Shown piece by piece: positions 1 through 5,122 of a stretch of DNA of 5,122 nucleotides; position 1 is the stretch's first letter; each line of letters starts with the position of its first letter. The notes under the pieces are model-generated. The model saw only the letters and a program-made list of their open reading frames with translations, searched no databases and was not told the DNA's origin. This DNA is from a virus. Position numbers and translations under genes: made by a program. The stretch is from positions 1 through 5,122 of the IMG/VR virus record IMGVR_UViG_3300045988_078885. One strand, written 5' to 3'.

Positions 1-55
1 CCAATCTAAACTTTTATCTAAACGACAACCAATACATTGACCACAGGGAACCTTA
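1..55. repeat. Terminal redundancy. Bases 1-55 are identical to 5068-5122, marking the wrap point of a circular 5067-nt genome.
   Basis: Compared base by base: ccaatctaaacttttatctaaacgacaaccaatacattgaccacagggaacctta occurs at both ends. A 55/55 match at both termini of a ~5-kb sequence encoding Microviridae proteins is the signature of a linearised circle. Confidence 0.9.
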
Positions 56-165
56 ACTTCAAAATCTCGCAAACCTTCACTGATATTAAAAACGACAGGC
101 CACTTACCATCAGGCGTCTTTCCATGAGCTGAACGCCAACCAGTAATAGGACAAAAACACGTCAT
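1..165 (-). CDS. Replication initiator Rep/VP4, N-terminal part. The ATG is at 165..163; the ORF continues across the circular junction into 5067..4207. Reconstructed N-terminus: MTCFCPITGWRSAHGKTPDGKWPVVFNISEGLRDFEVKVPCGQCIGCRLDKSLDWAGRCIQESTLWEHNYFLTLTYDD...
   Basis: Extended by hand upstream of the ORF-track start (TTG at 5019) in the same frame through 5122 = 55 and on to an in-frame stop at 181-183. The only ATG in the extension is at 163-165. It contains the CxxC...CxxC-like PCGQCIGCRL segment and the FLTLTY rolling-circle motif I, both typical of gokushovirus VP4. No SD: the upstream sequence is CACCCTTTTTTTT-ATG. Confidence 0.85.
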   Translation of the reverse strand, partial: MTCFCPITGWRSAHGKTPDGKWPVVFNISEGLRDFEVKVPCGQCIGCRLDKSLDW

Positions 166-195
166 AAAAAAAAGGGTGTTTCACGTGAAACACCC
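166..195 (-). terminator. Perfect 22-bp palindrome GGGTGTTTCAC|GTGAAACACCC (174-195) followed on the minus strand by T8 (166-173). Rho-independent-terminator-like, ending 0 nt before the Rep ATG.
   Basis: Reverse complement of gggtgtttcac = gtgaaacaccc (checked). The run of eight A on the plus strand at 166-173 is a T8 on the coding strand directly 3' of the hairpin. Confidence 0.6.
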
Positions 196-234
196 AATCA
201 AAAGGAAGAGAAATGAAAAAGACATCGGCTTCAA

Positions 235-354
235 TTATAACCGAATACCTCCTCGAAGCGGTCGGGCGTCATTCTTTTTGCGGTGCCGCATAGCGGTTTT
301 CGTAAAAAGAGCTTTGCTCTTCCGACGGGAGATCTTCTTTCGAAACTTACTCAT
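235..354 (-). CDS. Small highly basic DNA-binding protein (Microviridae J / gokushovirus VP8-like), 39 aa: MSKFRKKISRRKSKALFTKTAMRHRKKNDARPLRGGIRL
   Basis: Hand-translated minus-strand ORF, ATG at 354..352 and TAA at 237..235. A strong SD (GAGGAGAA) lies 6 nt upstream. About 41% K/R, no acidic stretch. It sits between VP2 and Rep. It is too short to appear in the supplied ORF track. The overlapping plus-strand ORF 176..373 is its antisense shadow. Confidence 0.6.
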   Translation of the reverse strand: MSKFRKKISRRKSKALFTKTAMRHRKKNDARPLRGGIRL

Positions 355-443
355 GGTTTGTTCTCCTCAATAAAACCAATGAATTGAAGAACAGCCTTAA
401 AAATCTCGGCCACGTAAGAAAAAAACTGGTCAATAAACTCCAT
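351..443 (-). CDS. Hypothetical 30-aa peptide MEFIDQFFSYVAEIFKAVLQFIGFIEENKP. Its TGA overlaps the ATG of the J-like gene (ATGA).
   Basis: Hand translation: ATG 443..441, stop 353..351. The stop-start overlap ccATGAgt suggests translational coupling, and the SD of the J-like gene is encoded inside its last codons (att GAG GAG AAc). It has no SD of its own. The strand is T-rich, so an F-rich ORF may arise by chance. Confidence 0.25.
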   Translation of the reverse strand: MEFIDQFFSYVAEIFKAVLQFIGFIEENKP

Positions 444-446
444 TAT

Positions 447-530
447 TTAAAAACCGCGAATAAAAAAGTAAATCAAACCAACAAAAACAACAAGACCGAA
501 AAGCCAAGACAAAAAACTAACGCTTCCCAT
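447..530 (-). CDS. Hypothetical 27-aa single-pass transmembrane peptide MGSVSFLSWLFGLVVFVGLIYFFIRGF. Its start overlaps the VP2 stop. Candidate lysis/membrane peptide.
   Basis: ATG 530..528, TAA 449..447. Sequence context atgggaagcgtTAGt: the VP2 stop TAG lies 9 nt inside this ORF. A GGTGG SD-like element sits 2 nt upstream. About 20 contiguous hydrophobic residues are followed by a basic R. Caveat: the T-rich strand favours hydrophobic codons by chance. Confidence 0.3.
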   Translation of the reverse strand: MGSVSFLSWLFGLVVFVGLIYFFIRGF

Positions 531-1137
531 TGCCACCAGACTCAAAAAAACGATCTGCTAAATCACGAAGACGCTTCAATTCTGAAGCTGACGAAGCATT
601 CTCTGTGATACCAGAAAGAATACCAGCAAGACCACCAACGCCAGGAAAAGCATCATTAGCTTTTTTAATACGAAAAGTCAAAGGATTGTCATCCCAAAAT
701 CGATTTTCACGATACAAAGAATAAGCATTCTCAGAATTTATGACAGCCTGAAGACGATTAGCATTGGCAATAGCTTCTTGAGCAAAACGTTGGTCTTCCT
801 TAAGCTCCGTATCCTTCTTAATGTTATCAATTTCAGCTTTCTGTTTGTTAAGAAGATTTTGCATCTGCAAACCTTGAAAAGCAGAAGAAGCAACATCAGG
901 CATCTGAACAGCAGAACCACCAGCATTAAGACCACCGGTCGAAGCACCTTGGTTAGCAGAAAGAATGGGATTAAGACCGGCCTTACGAAGGTCGTCAACC
1001 TCCCATTGATGGCGATTCTGCATCGCCTCTTTCTGCCATAGCCAATTATGGTACTGGGAAAGGTAGTTGAAGCGGTAGTTTCCATAACCTTGAGCAGCCG
1101 AAGAAGCAGCACCGACAACAGCACCAATCCAAGACAT
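517..1137 (-). CDS. VP2 minor capsid / DNA pilot protein (gokushovirus-type), 206 aa.
   Basis: ATG at 1137..1135, preceded by an AAGGAG SD at a 5-nt spacing (ttctAAGGAGtagttATG). Gly/Ala/Gln/Asn-rich with the KAGLNPILS motif characteristic of gokushovirus VP2. Starts 9 nt after the VP1 stop. Confidence 0.8.
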   Translation of the reverse strand: MSWIGAVVGAASSAAQGYGNYRFNYLSQYHNWLWQKEAMQNRHQWEVDDLRKAGLNPILSANQGASTGGLNAGGSAVQMPDVASSAFQGLQMQNLLNKQKAEIDNIKKDTELKEDQRFAQEAIANANRLQAVINSENAYSLYRENRFWDDNPLTFRIKKANDAFPGVGGLAGILSGITENASSASELKRLRDLADRFFESGGNGKR

Positions 1138-1146
1138 AACTACTCC

Positions 1147-2808
1147 TTAGAAATGATCAACCAAACCAGGTGTCGCATAAATCGGCATCGGTCTAACGCA
1201 TTTCATTTTAAAGAAACAATCACAAATGATAGGCGGTTCGTCAGTAACCGCAACCACTCTTTCAATCGGTGTATTGTCCCGAATGAACTCACCGTTAAGA
1301 ACAGGAAGCTGATCAAACTTTTCGGCGAGATGCCACACATCAAGCGGCGTACTGGACGTCGAGCGAAGTTGACCAGTGATCATCGACTGATGGTACCGAT
1401 ACTCAGCATAACGCTCTTGGTAACCGAAGACCTTGTCGTCATCTGCAGTGCCTTGGAAATAAATTTCCTTGTTGAGAATCGCTTGCTCACCAAGGTGAGC
1501 CAGAGCAGGCCAATAGAAGTCCCAACGGCCTTTACGACTCCACATGCGCGGAAGACCTTGCTGATACGTGAGATCGGACTGCACACAACAAAAACCGATA
1601 ATCCAACCGTGTTCGACAAACGACTTAGTGAAAGCATGACGAACATCCATGCCAACACCATAAGCTGCCAAGTTACCTTGGGGCGTAGTAGCAGAATCAG
1701 CCGTGCCACTAGTCTGTTGGACAGGGTTAATGTTGATGTGCGAACGACCACCACCGAGATACTCGGGGCGTTGGAGGCGAGCATCGGGAGAAACCACGCC
1801 GAAATGGGAGCGGAGAATTTCGATATAACGTGTGCCGCCGCGAGCGTCACGCTCCATCAACTTCTGGAGTTGGAATGCCTGACGAAGATCATTAATACTA
1901 ATAGGCGTTGCTTCAGAAAGATCTACAGTACCAGAACCAGATGCAGACAAACCAGAGGCATACGACAAAGCGTAACTGTCTCCAGTCTGACCAATATGAA
2001 CAGCCTGATCACCAAGACTAGAAACAGACAAATTATCAGCAACAACAGTAACGCGATTACGATTAAAAGTAAGATTGCCAGAAGAAACGATATCAATATC
2101 GTTGACAACTGCAGGAACAGAACCGCCTAAAGAAATCTCAACACCAGGGCCTTTCTGAGGCCACGGAAGTGCACTCGTAAAGTAATCATGGAACTTAGCA
2201 ACGGGCGGGGGCTCAGATCCGTAAGTCAAAGGATTATCAACATTGGTACCAGAAATAGCCGCATCACCTACAAACTCGCGGTCCGTAGTCTTGTCGATGT
2301 TATAAGCATCCTGCAAGTTTTGATCTCGAAACCACTCGTTCCAAATGAGCGAGATGCAACGAAGCGGAAGCTCCGTCATCTTGCAATCAGCATTGACATT
2401 AACAGGCAAACCAAGGTAATCACCAATAGTCCCAATTTGAAGATTATTAAGCGTAGCCTCGGGGACAAGATAATCAGTAGAAGCAGTGGGACCAGATCTC
2501 TGGTCTCCATTAAGAGCTTCCCAATGATTCCAAACCAATCGGTTAGGAACAAAGAAAAAAAACGTTCGAAGGTACAAATTATCCATGAAAGGCACGATCG
2601 GAGTGGAAAGACGTGCCAAAAGGGAGGCGGTCACATTGAAAGTATCGCCTGGGAGTACCTCATCAATGAAAATCGGGATGAGCTTGCCAGTCTTGAAAGC
2701 CGTCTTGTGATCAAAGTCACGCTTCAAAACTGAACGAGGAATACTCACCTTCGGGAGCTCGACAAATTGGCGAGCAGGATTGCCGTAACGAACAGTAGTT
2801 TTTGACAT
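1147..2808 (-). CDS. VP1 major capsid protein (phiX174 F-like jelly-roll, gokushovirus-type), 553 aa.
   Basis: The N-terminus ...PRSVLKRDFDHKTAFKTGKLIPIFIDEVLPGDTF...FMDNLYLRTFFFFVPNRLVWNHWE... matches the conserved gokushovirus VP1 N-terminal block. The length is typical (~550 aa). SD GAGGTGA lies 8 nt upstream of ATG 2808. Confidence 0.95.
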   Translation of the reverse strand: MSKTTVRYGNPARQFVELPKVSIPRSVLKRDFDHKTAFKTGKLIPIFIDEVLPGDTFNVTASLLARLSTPIVPFMDNLYLRTFFFFVPNRLVWNHWEALNGDQRSGPTASTDYLVPEATLNNLQIGTIGDYLGLPVNVNADCKMTELPLRCISLIWNEWFRDQNLQDAYNIDKTTDREFVGDAAISGTNVDNPLTYGSEPPPVAKFHDYFTSALPWPQKGPGVEISLGGSVPAVVNDIDIVSSGNLTFNRNRVTVVADNLSVSSLGDQAVHIGQTGDSYALSYASGLSASGSGTVDLSEATPISINDLRQAFQLQKLMERDARGGTRYIEILRSHFGVVSPDARLQRPEYLGGGRSHININPVQQTSGTADSATTPQGNLAAYGVGMDVRHAFTKSFVEHGWIIGFCCVQSDLTYQQGLPRMWSRKGRWDFYWPALAHLGEQAILNKEIYFQGTADDDKVFGYQERYAEYRYHQSMITGQLRSTSSTPLDVWHLAEKFDQLPVLNGEFIRDNTPIERVVAVTDEPPIICDCFFKMKCVRPMPIYATPGLVDHF

Positions 2809-2840
2809 CTTTAGGTCACCTCATTGGAAATTCGGTGTCA

Positions 2841-2875
2841 CCTCACACAGTTACATCAAGATTAACTGTGTGAGG
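2841..2875 (-). promoter_or_regulatory. Perfect 13-bp inverted repeat (cctcacacagtta / taactgtgtgagg) with a 9-nt loop, in the VP3-VP1 intergenic space.
   Basis: Arms 2841-2853 and 2863-2875 are exact reverse complements. It begins 1 nt after the VP3 stop (2877-2879). No T-run follows on the coding strand, so this is not a classic terminator. More likely an mRNA-stability or processing hairpin, or an ssDNA structural element. Confidence 0.55.
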
Positions 2876-2876
2876 T

Positions 2877-3293
2877 TCAAACCGCAGGTTCCTGAGTCGG
2901 AACTGCGGGCTGGGTTTCAGGTTCAGCAGCTGGTTTTGAGGGACTCAAATCGCCTGCAAGTTGTTTCTTAGCGGCTTCCTCAACCAAAGACTCGACCCAA
3001 AGGCGAGGGTCGTCTTGGAATTCACGGCGTTTGTCCGCGGGAAGTTCCGCAAACGTGGCATTGACCGCAAGAATCTTATTGAGCTGTTCCTGATAATCAC
3101 CGACATCGCTGACATCCAAATGCACAGCGGCAGACGCGCGAGCGGGATCACCGAGCAAACCAGTCGCACGGTAACGCTTCAAGTAATAATCGATTGTTGT
3201 CTGAGGGTACTCAGACTGCACCGTCATTGACGGCTTCTTGTAAGTCGTGCCCTTGGAGGGCACACGAGCCGAATAGCGATCTTTAAACTTCAT
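2877..3293 (-). CDS. VP3 internal scaffolding protein (gokushovirus-type), 138 aa from ATG 3293. The ORF track extends it to a GTG at 3347.
   Basis: The central segment ...FAELPADKRREFQDDPRLWVESL... resembles the conserved LPAxVRxxFxNxP...L block of gokushovirus VP3. The C-terminus is acidic/Pro-rich. ATG 3293 has a GAGGA SD 9 nt upstream and overlaps the 3' end of the upstream ORF (ATGAAGTTTAA). Confidence 0.7.
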   Translation of the reverse strand: MKFKDRYSARVPSKGTTYKKPSMTVQSEYPQTTIDYYLKRYRATGLLGDPARASAAVHLDVSDVGDYQEQLNKILAVNATFAELPADKRREFQDDPRLWVESLVEEAAKKQLAGDLSPSKPAAEPETQPAVPTQEPAV

Positions 3294-3549
3294 CTTCCAA
3301 ATCCTCACCGACAAAAGTGAAATCGCACCATTCAGAAATGGCAACACCGTCTTCGTAAAAACGACGCTTTCTTAAACTTACGCTTTCTTTACTAGAAAGA
3401 ACAGCATGGGTCACATCTTTCGCCATCGGGTGTCGCGCAACCATACGACCCGCCTTTGTGGCGGCTCCGCGGAATGATTCAGCCGCGAGATGCACGCACG
3501 CTAATTTATATACGCCGTGCCAAATCGACAAACTGTATAAGCTAACCAT
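3283..3549 (-). CDS. Hypothetical protein, 88 aa, with an acidic C-terminus (EDLEDEV). Translationally coupled to VP3.
   Basis: ATG 3549..3547 with a strong SD AAGGAGA 6 nt upstream. Its stop TAA (3285..3283) falls 8 nt after the VP3 ATG. I do not recognise any family. Confidence 0.55.
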   Translation of the reverse strand: MVSLYSLSIWHGVYKLACVHLAAESFRGAATKAGRMVARHPMAKDVTHAVLSSKESVSLRKRRFYEDGVAISEWCDFTFVGEDLEDEV

Positions 3550-3561
3550 GGACTCTCCTTA

Positions 3562-3604
3562 GCTTTTGTTTCACAAAAGCGCGGGGCCCCCCAAGGCCCC
3601 CCGC
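3562..3604 (-). promoter_or_regulatory. Tandem hairpins: AT-type gcttttgt-ttc-acaaaagc (3562-3580) and a GC-rich gcgggg...ccccgc element (3581-3604). On the coding strand the GC hairpin is followed by TTTTGTG.
   Basis: Reverse-complement checks: cttttgt/acaaaag, gcgggg/ccccgc, and the internal self-complementary ggggcccc. On the minus strand the order is GC hairpin, then TTTTGTGAAACAAAAGC, then the SD of the 88-aa ORF. This is terminator-like and would have to be leaky. Confidence 0.5.
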
Positions 3605-3638
3605 ACGTCAACGCTCGCCTGCGGCCTCGCTGGAGGCT

Positions 3639-3848
3639 CTACGCATGACCAACAACGTCACAAATAAACGAATCATTCTTGACAAGACAATAAAACAATT
3701 TGTCAACATCTTTGTCATAAAAGAAATAACCAACTAAACGGCCTTGAGCTACCGCGCGGGAAAGCCCGCTTGGTGCCTCGATTGCGCCGCTTCGCTGGGC
3801 TCGTCGAGGTCGATTTTTTTCCGCCTTCGGCGGCTTTCCATCAGACAT
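3639..3848 (-). CDS. Questionable 69-aa basic ORF (MSDGKPPKAEKNRPRRAQRSG...) running through the hairpin-rich non-coding block. Probably not coding.
   Basis: The ATG at 3848..3846 overlaps the stop of the 110-aa ORF (ATGTCTGA). The N-terminus is K/R-rich. The Ala/Gly-rich middle is encoded by GC hairpins (3755-3833), and the AT block carries promoter-like hexamers. A second J-like protein is unlikely given the 39-aa candidate with the strong SD. Confidence 0.2.
   Translation of the reverse strand: MSDGKPPKAEKNRPRRAQRSGAIEAPSGLSRAVAQGRLVGYFFYDKDVDKLFYCLVKNDSFICDVVGHA
3755..3833. promoter_or_regulatory. Cluster of GC-rich hairpins: gcggg-aaag-cccgc (3756-3769); cctcga...tcgagg (3776-3809) followed by a plus-strand T7 (3814-3820); ccgcc-ttc-ggcgg (3821-3833).
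   Basis: All stems were verified by reverse complement. On the plus strand a hairpin followed by a T7 run resembles a rho-independent terminator. In ssDNA these would form stable stem-loops. This is the largest non-coding stretch of the genome. Confidence 0.5.
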
Positions 3849-4173
3849 TTTTCTCAACCTTATTAGAAGAGGATGCTTTCGCAAGTTCAGAAGCGAAACG
3901 TTCAGCCTTAAGAGCAGAAATGCGAGCCTCAACACCGGTCATGATTTGAACACGATTAGTGGATTCATCTTCATTCTGGAAAATGGAGCCAGTGCCCTCA
4001 TAAAAGGCACCAAGACACCAAAGATCAAAATCTTCAGGATTGCGAGAAATGACAGTGCGTGCGTCACGACAAAGATCGACAAAACTGCGCTTGGCAAGAT
4101 CGTGATTGACACAGAAAAAAGGCGTGTTGTATGACTGAGCCTTTTTGTCATAAACGCTATACAAAAACTGCAT
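3841..4173 (-). CDS. Hypothetical protein, 110 aa from ATG 4173, in the VP5 position immediately downstream of Rep.
   Basis: The ATG at 4173..4171 is preceded by TGAGGT and a 6-nt spacer (gagTGAGGTtttttATG). The ORF track starts it at a GTG at 4185. Begins 33 nt after the Rep stop. Assignment as VP5 is by position only. Sequence: MQFLYSVYDKKAQSYNTPFFCVNHDLAKRSFVDLCRDARTVISRNPEDFDLWCLGAFYEG... Confidence 0.55.
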   Translation of the reverse strand: MQFLYSVYDKKAQSYNTPFFCVNHDLAKRSFVDLCRDARTVISRNPEDFDLWCLGAFYEGTGSIFQNEDESTNRVQIMTGVEARISALKAERFASELAKASSSNKVEKNV

Positions 4174-4206
4174 AAAAAACCTCACTCAACATAATAGTAG
4201 TTGTGG

Positions 4207-5122
4207 TCACTCAAACGTACGTTTGAGAGCTTTTGCCGTGTATTCCTTTGCCTCACGGCGGGCAATCAGCCGAGACTGCTCATTGTCTAAAGAGCTCTCA
4301 GCTTTCTTAGCGATTATAGCACGCTTAGCTTTGTAATCGAAGTAGGCTTTCTTGTTAAGCTTAAAGAGCTTATCCAAATAGTAGCGCGGAACGCTATGCT
4401 TCTTCCCATTGATGAGAACGAAGCCAAGGCGTTCAATGTCCTCACGGTTTTTAATGAACCAATTAAAGCCAATGCCTGGACGGTTGCTACAGCGGGAAAA
4501 CGGGGGAAGGCGCGTACCGTAATAATCAGCGGCAGGATCGCCATAGATTTTCTTGGTCGTATAGCGCGCAACGTAACCAGCTGATTCAGCAGTAACAGAA
4601 CCGATAATCACATTACCATGACCCCAAATACGCTCAAGCCAAGCGGACCGAAACAAAGGGGAACCATCGGAGCCCATACCGTAATAGAGCAAATCCGGAA
4701 TGTCCAAGTTAAAAACAATCGCATGATAGTGCGGGCGACCTCCTTTATCACCATACTCGCCAGAAGCGAAATAACGAATGCTATTCACAAGCGTTCGTTT
4801 ACCGTCAACGATCTCATAAACTGGCTGGCGACCAAGTCCGCCAGCAAGTAAATCTTCGGAATTCAAAGGCGCAAAAACAGACTTACGCAAACGCTTCCAA
4901 AAAAGAGTGAGATGCAAAGGAATCAAACCACCATCGTCGGGGCGATCTGTACGATAACAAAAAGACGGATCTTGAAAAGACTTAACAGGAGTCCTCTCAT
5001 CATCATAAGTCAAAGTCAAAAAATAGTTATGCTCCCAAAGAGTACTTTCTTGAATACAACGACCTGCCCAATCTAAACTTTTATCTAAACGACAACCAAT
5101 ACATTGACCACAGGGAACCTTA
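4207..5122 (-). CDS. Replication initiator Rep/VP4 (rolling-circle HUH endonuclease), C-terminal 304 codons within this window. The true start lies beyond the window end, at position 165 after the circular wrap.
   Basis: Motif I FLTLTY (about 5005-5022). Motif II HYH in GRPHYHAIVFN (4723-4731; checked, cactatcat on the coding strand). Motif III YVARYTTKK (about 4561-4575), comparable to phiX174 gpA YVAKYVNKK. The ORF has no ATG until residue 116 but stays open upstream across 5122/1. Confidence 0.9.
   Translation of the reverse strand, partial: KVPCGQCIGCRLDKSLDWAGRCIQESTLWEHNYFLTLTYDDERTPVKSFQDPSFCYRTDRPDDGGLIPLHLTLFWKRLRKSVFAPLNSEDLLAGGLGRQPVYEIVDGKRTLVNSIRYFASGEYGDKGGRPHYHAIVFNLDIPDLLYYGMGSDGSPLFRSAWLERIWGHGNVIIGSVTAESAGYVARYTTKKIYGDPAADYYGTRLPPFSRCSNRPGIGFNWFIKNREDIERLGFVLINGKKHSVPRYYLDKLFKLNKKAYFDYKAKRAIIAKKAESSLDNEQSRLIARREAKEYTAKALKRTFE

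Follow-up and report, generated by a model that had tools for sequence, protein, structure and literature searches.

The complementary-strand origin of phage G4, like those of St-1, alpha3 and phiK a site of DnaG primase, is a GC-rich cluster of viral-strand hairpins that lies between genes, just upstream of a structural gene; in the annotated G4 origin there are three such hairpins, and the one with a mini-hairpin is the last, ~25 nt before the next gene. In phiX174, the intercistronic hairpins TJ, TF, TG and TH serve as weak terminators and mRNA stabilisers. For gokushoviruses, which are among the most abundant single-stranded DNA (ssDNA) phages in gut and environmental viromes and of which almost none has been cultured, we know of no complementary-strand origin that has been defined. 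Here we describe an array of hairpins in a member of the Gokushovirinae, an ssDNA gut phage (IMG/VR record IMGVR_UViG_3300045988_078885, positions 1 to 5,122; this whole stretch is called the window below). The array occupies positions 3550-3848, between the VP5 gene and a conserved open reading frame (ORF) of 88 amino acids (aa), ORF88, and may represent a complementary-strand origin.

The DNA mini-hairpins of Hirao and colleagues, d(GCGAAGC) and d(GCGAAAGC), are extraordinarily stable, which their RNA versions are not, r(GCGAAAGC) having a melting temperature of 39 C (PMC13037366). This motif is located where primase starts at the complementary-strand origins of G4, St-1 and alpha3, and is found also in ssiA of RSF1010; it has been linked to primase recognition and to the exclusion of single-strand-binding protein (SSB), which binds poorly to two CGGCGAAAGCCG units in tandem (PMC13037366). 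For phiX174, priming of the complementary strand was proposed to enter at the n' hairpin between genes F and G (Shlomai and Kornberg 1980, cited by PMC9865509). Single-strand origins (sso) of rolling-circle plasmids and of ICEBs1 comprise about three stem-loops, which are recognised by host RNA polymerase or primase (PMC4595007). In reekeekee- and roodoodooviruses, conserved intergenic hairpins folded with DNA parameters carry compensatory substitutions and have been proposed, as yet unproven, as the start of the negative strand (PMC9865509). Since these similar but simpler hairpins of other microvirus clades have been read likewise, the idea of priming by hairpins is not new. Those clades are unrelated to the present one and have one or two hairpins, whereas the locus described here has seven; new are its signature of mini-hairpins with G-N-A loops, their tandem amplification, the exchange of cassettes, the overlap with a maintained ORF and a strand bias across the subfamily.

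Layout of the hairpin array

In the Microviridae the virion strand has mRNA sense. The minus strand of the window, which carries all recognisable genes (there are none on the plus strand), is therefore both the packaged DNA and the transcript. Unless stated otherwise, all features below lie on this strand, along which the hairpins are numbered H1 to H6 from 5' to 3'. The original prediction, made from the sequence alone, had listed six hairpins, all of which we found at the expected positions by direct reading and folding; a seventh, H4b, was absent from that list.

Block A (3749-3834) comprises H1, H2 and H3. It falls within the first third of ORFx (3639-3848), a 69-aa ORF whose N-terminus is basic, and the three hairpins are contained in the first 33 codons of this ORF. 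H1 (3821-3833, CCGCC-GAA-GGCGG) has a 5-bp stem and a G-N-A triloop closed by a C-G pair. An A7 tract (3814-3820; A6 in relatives) separates it from H2 (3776-3809), a long imperfect hairpin (CCTCGA..TCGAGG) capped by a GC-GAA-GC mini-hairpin. H3 (3752-3773) is preceded by a conserved GGCACCAAGCG and consists of a core, GCGGG-CTTT-CCCGC (3756-3769), with outer CC/GG pairs. An AT-rich spacer (3645-3748, GC 0.32), which encodes the C-terminal half of ORFx, connects this block with block B (3550-3644). Block B starts with a conserved unpaired 10-mer, GCGTAGAGCC (3635-3644), whose TAG is the stop codon of ORFx, and continues with H4 (3624-3637, GCCTC-CAGC-GAGGC) and H4b (3617-3625, GCC-GCA-GGC; GC-GAA-GC in most relatives). 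Two bases are common to H4 and H4b, which are therefore alternative conformers. The conserved linker GAGCGTTGACGT (3605-3616) is followed by H5 (3581-3604, GCGGGGGGCCTTGGGGGGCCCCGC), a GC-rich, imperfect hairpin in whose stem two G.G mismatches are conserved, and by H6 (3562-3580, GCTTTTGT-GAA-ACAAAAGC), an AT hairpin whose arms (3562-3569 and 3573-3580) pair perfectly over 8 bp. The block ends 1 nt ahead of the strong ribosome-binding site of ORF88 (Shine-Dalgarno TAAGGAGAG, 3553-3561; ATG, 3547-3549), which the hairpins leave unsequestered in the predicted folds.

Folding, which had been suggested as a check, supported the array: the 299 nt outperform dinucleotide shuffles with DNA parameters (z = -2.65, 2 of 200 shuffles as good) and with RNA parameters (z = -2.36). 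The switch from A/T-rich to GC-rich sequence that the original prediction described is a modest contrast (GC 0.49-0.555 in region 3550-3848 vs ~0.46 in the genome), and the central 100 nt are its most AT-rich part. Likewise, a non-coding block of ~300 nt had been claimed. This holds for the ~90 nt at 3550-3638, which are clearly non-coding, but not for 3639-3848, which lie under an ORF that is kept open in relatives; the annotation can be corrected to include this small, hairpin-overlapping and seemingly maintained ORF. No Rfam covariance model matched the region at E up to 1, and ARAGORN found no tRNA or tmRNA in it. A dif/XerCD site was considered and rejected, as a look by eye revealed nothing dif-like in the non-conserved spacer.

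H5 contains two G6 runs (GGGGGGCC tt GGGGGGCC), and its G.G mismatches are in mid-stem; relatives keep 6-7 G, with a loop that is 1-2 nt longer. For these runs, a two-tetrad G-quadruplex or a protein site is conceivable.

Conservation and covariation

Relatives were collected from several sources. A distant search provided four GenBank genomes of ~70% identity, while a near-identity search of phage records gave no match and a search of a phage collection with positions 3500-3900 returned two gokushovirus records only. IMG/VR contributed four further relatives, although the VP5 protein as a probe found no match there. An alignment of ORF88 led to 20 protein clusters, the contigs of which were fetched, and two more genomes were found via the 69-aa ORF. 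In addition, four human-gut metagenome contigs are 100% identical to the window in this region. The stretch from VP5 to ORF88 measures 259-614 nt in every genome of the clade and has three alternative forms. Type I (the window, L327, KT264806/L001, L005, L006, L328, L336, L349, L351, L356 and L362) shows the layout of block A, ~100-nt spacer and block B. Type III (L004, L329-L331 and L347-L348) has only block B in common with type I; attached to it is a different 5' half, in which an ORF was called (122 aa in L329-L331). In type II (L003, L248, L249 and others within L332-L346) the array is absent, and unrelated conserved hairpins take its place, among them the covarying GC hairpins GGCCCGG-acgc-CCGGGCC, TGCGGCG-acg-CCGCCGCA and AGCCGCG-tcgc-CGCGGCT. 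MAFFT was unable to hold the register of H2 across its two types; per-hairpin alignments and a manual register were used instead.

In ~12 related genomes, compensatory changes preserve the pairing of the stems, the comparative outcome for which the original prediction had asked. The hairpins are real and under selection, and their conservation and covariation are much stronger evidence for this than the shuffle z-scores. The stem of H1 is invariant in nine genomes, and its loop changes only at N (GAA, GCA, GTA). In H2, 5 of 13 pairs are compensatory among four sequences without any one-sided change, and 96% of cells are paired, compared with 33-50% in slid controls. The stem of H3 is wholly swapped between L356 and L362, both of which form a perfect 10-bp hairpin. 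All 13 type I and type III genomes contain GCGTAGAGCC with at most one change. H4 is invariant in type I and gives way to a covarying 7-bp hairpin in type III; the TTGACG of the linker is not strictly conserved (TCGACG in L327, CTGACG in L349), and the outer C-G pair of H5 becomes T-A in L006 and L329. H6 exists with five distinct stem sequences, in which 6 of 7 pairs are compensatory and 93% of cells are paired, as opposed to 20-37% in slid controls; none of 500 shuffles was as good. Folded alone with DNA parameters, each variant adopts the same three-plus-three hairpin layout. With the manual register, 25 of 59 paired positions are compensatory, a count that profits from the leaning of a by-eye alignment toward pairing.

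The closest relative, L327, is identical to the window at all 86 positions of block A and in H4, H5 and H6; ORF88, VP3 and VP1 are 87-92% identical between the two, with a synonymous divergence of 0.24-0.36. Where the two differ within the region, the substitutions affect the spacer, H4b with its linker, and positions adjoining the ribosome-binding site. The spacer is 89.4% identical, which equals the background level; across the clade its sequence is unconserved, and its length stays at 96-104 nt in eight of nine genomes.

The nucleotides of H1 are conserved even though they are read in two frames (KPPKAEKN or KAAEGGKK), and H3 is kept while the encoded peptide shifts from RAGNDPLE to RSSLYSIG. 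Structure is therefore selected independently of protein, and ORFx, whether it is a gene or not, does not explain the hairpins.

Loop type and strand bias

The structures do not merely exist, stay conserved and covary; they also carry a strand-specific loop type. Among 37 virion-strand triloops, 36 are G-N-A (29 GAA, 4 GCA, 2 GTA and 1 GGA), with all four bases at N and G and A fixed, and these are closed by C-G except in the window's own H6. H1, the H2 cap and H4b are such C(GNA)G hairpins, whereas H6 reads T-GAA-A in the window and CGGC-GAA-GCCG in most relatives. The H6 of L348, CGGC-GAAA-GCCG (CGGCGAAAGCCG), is the same, base for base, as the 12-mer of hairpin I in G4. Loops of the GNRA type (GTGA, GAGA), a type characteristic of RNA, occur in the short forms of H3. 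With stems of at least 3 bp, the virion-strand C(GNA)G hairpins of the window are both in the region and none is elsewhere (shuffle P = 0.007).

A census of 77 gokushovirus genomes (the window, L001, L003, L004, L006 and L248-L326, all oriented by VP1; stems of at least 3 bp; ORF cut-off of at least 80 aa) extends this pattern. Outside long ORFs, the virion strand has 28 C(GNA)G hairpins and the complement has 3, a count that overstates independence, as many of the 28 are homologous copies; inside ORFs the numbers are 104 and 132. Because the virion strand is poor in A, the direction of the 28:3 bias is opposite to what base composition would give. A T-rich tail follows just 2 of the 28 hairpins, and they are therefore not terminators.

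In some relatives the H6 unit ACAACGGC-GAA-GCCGC is present in tandem, twice in L349 (~1450-1490) and in L351 and four times in L356 (~1420-1490).

The overlapping open reading frame

The ATG of ORFx overlaps the stop codon of VP5 (3841-3843). In at least ten related genomes ORFx is open, with 65-106 aa, a start ~20 nt before H1 and a stop at the start of block B. Six divergent versions of the spacer, which share little or no similarity, are all stop-free (per-version chance 0.07-0.32, product ~1e-5). In two pairs of genomes the nonsynonymous-to-synonymous ratio (pN/pS) is lower in frame (0.53-0.65) than in the other frames (0.85-1.4), while the pair of window and L327 gives no such signal. 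The window has lost the usual start of ORFx, and the downstream EAPSGLSRAV frame is regained by means of a new ATG and a single additional A; this A, in the A7 tract, alters the frame in which H1 is read. The original prediction took the ORF for a probable by-product. Its openness in six divergent versions and the lower in-frame pN/pS make that doubtful, although selection is far weaker than on the neighbouring genes (overall pN/pS 0.66-0.84 vs 0.12-0.28 for VP5, ORF88 and VP3). We consider the chance that ORFx is translated somewhat better than even.

In relatives, no clear Shine-Dalgarno sequence precedes the ATG of ORFx, whereas every other gene has a strong one. ORFx has no Pfam or PHROG match and is represented in the protein database by only six clusters. 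Block B lies outside ORFx in most genomes; it is read through in L349 and not in L351, because of a 4-nt indel between them. Two further ideas were rejected. A J/VP8-like DNA-binding function of ORFx is contradicted by a separate 39-aa basic ORF at 235-354, which occupies the VP8 position. Read-through of the VP5 stop codon TGA (region 3841-3848) into the KAAEGGKK frame would be limited to the window, without a counterpart in L327, and its product is not conserved.

A candidate origin of the virion strand

The spacer between VP3 and VP1 (2809-2876) contains a perfect 13-bp hairpin at 2840-2874, CCTCACACAGTTA-atcttgatg-TAACTGTGTGAGG. Its stem covaries in 13 genomes, which all share CTTGATGTAA in the loop and, after it, GTGACA(C/G)C without variation. 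The loop's CTTGAT resembles the nick site of gene A protein, CAACTTG|ATATTAATAAC, which we located in G4 and which reads CAACTTG|ATA in phiX174 and G4. It likewise resembles the nick sites of the pC194 plasmid family, CTTG|ATA. Judged by this sequence likeness, the hairpin is a likely candidate for the nick site of Rep (VP4), and hence for the (+) origin; if so, the hairpin array is not needed as a Rep origin. On the virion strand, ~700 nt separate the array from the candidate nick site downstream of it, a spacing that resembles the usual arrangement of sso and double-strand origin (dso) in rolling-circle plasmids.

A putative complementary-strand origin and its alternatives

We tentatively favour the interpretation that the array is a modular complementary-strand (single-strand) origin that works like the origin of G4, and put its chance only slightly below even. 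We go no higher because loop chemistry and analogy are all that separates a DNA function from an RNA function. On the infecting ssDNA, the very stable C(GNA)G mini-hairpins would stay folded and resist the host SSB, and the folded array would mark the place where a host enzyme lays the RNA primer for the complementary strand. By analogy, this enzyme may be primase, as in G4, or RNA polymerase or PriA, as at other single-strand origins. The array could moreover act as an exchangeable, host-dependent cassette, similar to the sso of rolling-circle plasmids.

The likeness to G4 is one of architecture: H4, H5 and H6 of block B stand directly before the ribosome-binding site of ORF88, and the hairpin nearest the next gene holds a G-A-closed mini-hairpin, which in L348 is identical to that of G4. 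The two phages belong to different subfamilies (Bullavirinae and Gokushovirinae), there is no sequence homology beyond the 12-mer of L348, and here the seven hairpins form two blocks ~100 nt apart, half of them inside an ORF, without a conserved CTG start. By sequence, the array is thus not in the G4 origin family. As the original prediction proposed a complementary-strand origin, the covarying stems, the G-N-A loops as at G4, the virion-strand bias and the presence of a separate candidate (+) origin speak in its favour; its comparison with the n' (PriA) site of phiX174 is not supported. That site is also a viral-strand hairpin region of a microvirus, but it comprises just one such region, ~55 nt long, which PriA recognises; it bears no resemblance to the array, and nothing favours PriA over primase or RNA polymerase here. 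Like the sso and the (-) origins of filamentous phages, which are exchangeable cassettes that depend on the host, the locus shows exchange, three alternatives being found in one slot. It differs from the sso in having no match in a collection of 72,556 plasmids, no CS-6 motif and no promoter-like -35/-10 pair; a scan of the region detected none, and the TTGACA of the spacer is unconserved and lacks a -10 partner.

Several observations weigh against an origin. The virion strand is also the mRNA strand, and all structural arguments except the loop type fit RNA equally well; the fold z-scores for DNA and RNA are similar, and counts of G.T versus A.C are too few to discriminate between the strands. 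The stem register was made by eye and leans toward pairing, and the homologous copies in the census have been mentioned. There is no sequence similarity to known origins, including the plasmid collection and Rfam. In 12 of 13 genomes block B lacks CTG, the trinucleotide at which E. coli primase starts on the 3' side of hairpin I, although the host's trinucleotide preference may differ, and the ssoA CS-6 motif (TAGCG[TA]) is missing from block B in all 13. A maintained ORF runs through half of the array. Finally, type II relatives lack the array and, if it is an origin, must use an unrelated one.

The main rival is that the hairpins act in polycistronic mRNA, as nuclease barriers, processing sites or weak read-through terminators that set the ratio of Rep/VP5 to ORF88/VP3/VP1/VP2, as suggested by the fact that the folding strand is the coding strand, that block B sits exactly between two cistrons and immediately before a strong ribosome-binding site, and that the RNA z-score is close to that for DNA. 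The GNRA-type loops of the short H3 forms would fit as well, and the stem-loops of phiX174 are multifunctional, so that a hairpin alone is not assignable to priming (PMC9865509). We nevertheless think such a role unlikely, if well worth considering: a G-N-A triloop with a closing C-G pair is exceptional as DNA but weak as RNA (PMC13037366), none of the hairpins is followed by a conserved U-tract, and the textbook terminator at 195-174 looks quite different. Stable mRNA hairpins at H1-H3 would also hinder translation of the ORF that contains them, and the ribosome-binding site downstream is not sequestered. The intercistronic hairpins of phiX174 are comparable in being GC-rich and located between cistrons on the coding strand of a microvirus, but the array has no conserved U-tract, has DNA-specific loops and extends into an ORF. 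More narrowly, the original prediction envisaged intrinsic terminators on both strands, formed by H5 with TTTTGTG on the coding strand and by H2 with T7 on the antisense strand, which we regard as highly improbable. A terminator scan does call H5 (3600-3583, minus) with GCGCTTTTGT terminator-like in the window and in L327. The T-run forms the 5' arm of H6 in the form that the window has and is limited to these two genomes; in the other 11 of 13, the 8 nt that follow H5 include 0-2 T. The A6-7 run beside H2 (T6-7 when read on the plus strand) is conserved, but in plus-strand direction it starts 4-6 nt past the stem, 4 nt in the window, and for this reason was not called by the scan; it doubles as a Lys-Lys codon pair in ORFx, and, with all genes on one strand, the plus strand has none for a terminator to protect.

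Other explanations have less to recommend them. A different cis role on single- or double-stranded phage DNA, such as accessory binding or termination by Rep/VP5, a packaging signal or a recombination hotspot, could account for the conserved unpaired motifs GCGTAGAGCC and GGCACCAAGCG that flank hairpins, for the exchange of cassettes between lineages and for the location ~700 nt upstream of the candidate nick site. It appears improbable, as the cassette type is discordant with the Rep/ORF88 lineage, which argues against a signal matched to a phage protein; moreover, we know of no such signal in the Microviridae except the origin in phiX174 gene A. Quite improbable is the view that the region is simply a protein-coding gene and that its GC-rich inverted repeats are a side effect of a Lys/Arg/Ala/Gly/Pro-rich peptide. 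The stop-free versions of ORFx, its lower in-frame pN/pS in two pairs and its restoration in the window after loss of the start region are what such a gene would predict, whereas the compensatory stem changes, the full swap of the H3 stem with a changed peptide, the conservation of H1 in two frames and the position of block B outside ORFx in most genomes are not; a pN/pS well above that of the neighbours, relatives without a ribosome-binding site and the lack of family matches point the same way. A dnaX-type programmed -1 frameshift cassette, with A_AAA_AAG in the phase of ORFx and H2 4-6 nt downstream, is barely credible: 8 of 10 genomes have the heptamer in phase and none lacks the downstream hairpin, but -1 products are not conserved (L349 stops after three codons), the window itself has A_AAA_AAT, and ORFx is weakly supported as a gene.

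If the array is indeed a complementary-strand origin, it offers a concrete, clonable element for rescue assays in M13 or with plasmid single-strand origins, and would carry the association of mini-hairpins with the origin, as in G4, into a second subfamily. The cassette type may then reflect the priming enzyme of the host and could help to predict hosts. If, on the other hand, the hairpins act in mRNA, the finding is an ordinary one. A broader idea, which we judge possible but rather doubtful, is that gokushoviruses as a subfamily mark their complementary-strand origin by virion-strand arrays of C(GNA)G mini-hairpins that resist SSB, in the form of interchangeable, host-matched cassettes with one to four tandem CGGC-GAA-GCCG units that can be threaded through a small open ORF. 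In that case the cassette type could be used as a sequence-only marker of the host's priming machinery, and hence of host range, in thousands of uncultured gut microviruses.

Cassette exchange between relatives

The type of cassette is discordant with the lineages of Rep and ORF88; the slot therefore exchanges cassettes. Such an exchange fits a signal that depends on a host factor.

Several other features of this slot were observed in the relatives. Directly downstream of VP5, all relatives carry two alternating purine-pyrimidine tracts (e.g. CGCGCGTGCGCG-att-CGCGCGTGCGCG), at 3985-4016 in L001 and located likewise in L003-L006, L248, L249, L328, L349, L356 and L362; in the window, both this segment and the usual start of ORFx have been lost. 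Distant gokushoviruses (L283, L289-L291) have the tract pair and an AGC-GAA-GCT mini-hairpin 1 nt upstream of a long ORF, which is probably Rep. In two type II contigs, VP5 is not preceded by Rep: in L338 (1-542) HipA-like and helix-turn-helix (HTH) genes take this place, and in L339 (1-803, a contig of 14.9 kb) an unidentified gene of 206 aa. These arrangements could be prophage junctions or assembly chimeras.

A pattern search of metagenome and genome contigs with GAGGCACCAAGCG..GCGCGG was dominated by chance. Of 240 matches, 171 were coincidental and lay in the EF-Tu gene of high-GC bacteria, in which the 13-mer GAGGCACCAAGCG is followed by GCGCGG 12 nt later (..LLRGTKREEVERGQV..). Two matches with a trailing TAG (L012, L069) were unrelated. 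L007, found separately, was a chance match within a high-GC phage gene.

Genome context

The first 55 bases of the window recur at its end, and the genome is therefore circular and complete, with a unit of ~5067 nt. Its genes on the minus strand are VP2 (517-1137), VP1 (1147-2808), the VP3 scaffold (2877-3293, in an ORF listed up to 3347), ORF88 (3283-3549), VP5 (3841-4185) and Rep (VP4, from 4207).

The 39-aa ORF at 235-354, MSKFRKKISRRKSKALFTKTAMRHRKKNDARPLRGGIRL, is extremely basic, has a strong ribosome-binding site, lies between VP2 and Rep, and is also called as a gene on the identical contigs L358-L360. It probably encodes a VP8/J-like DNA-binding protein; in enterogokushoviruses, VP8 sits at the matching position (PMC7062461). 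Downstream of this ORF and upstream of Rep, at 195-174, there is a canonical intrinsic terminator, GGGTGTTTCACGTGAAACACCC, which has a 9-bp stem followed by T8.

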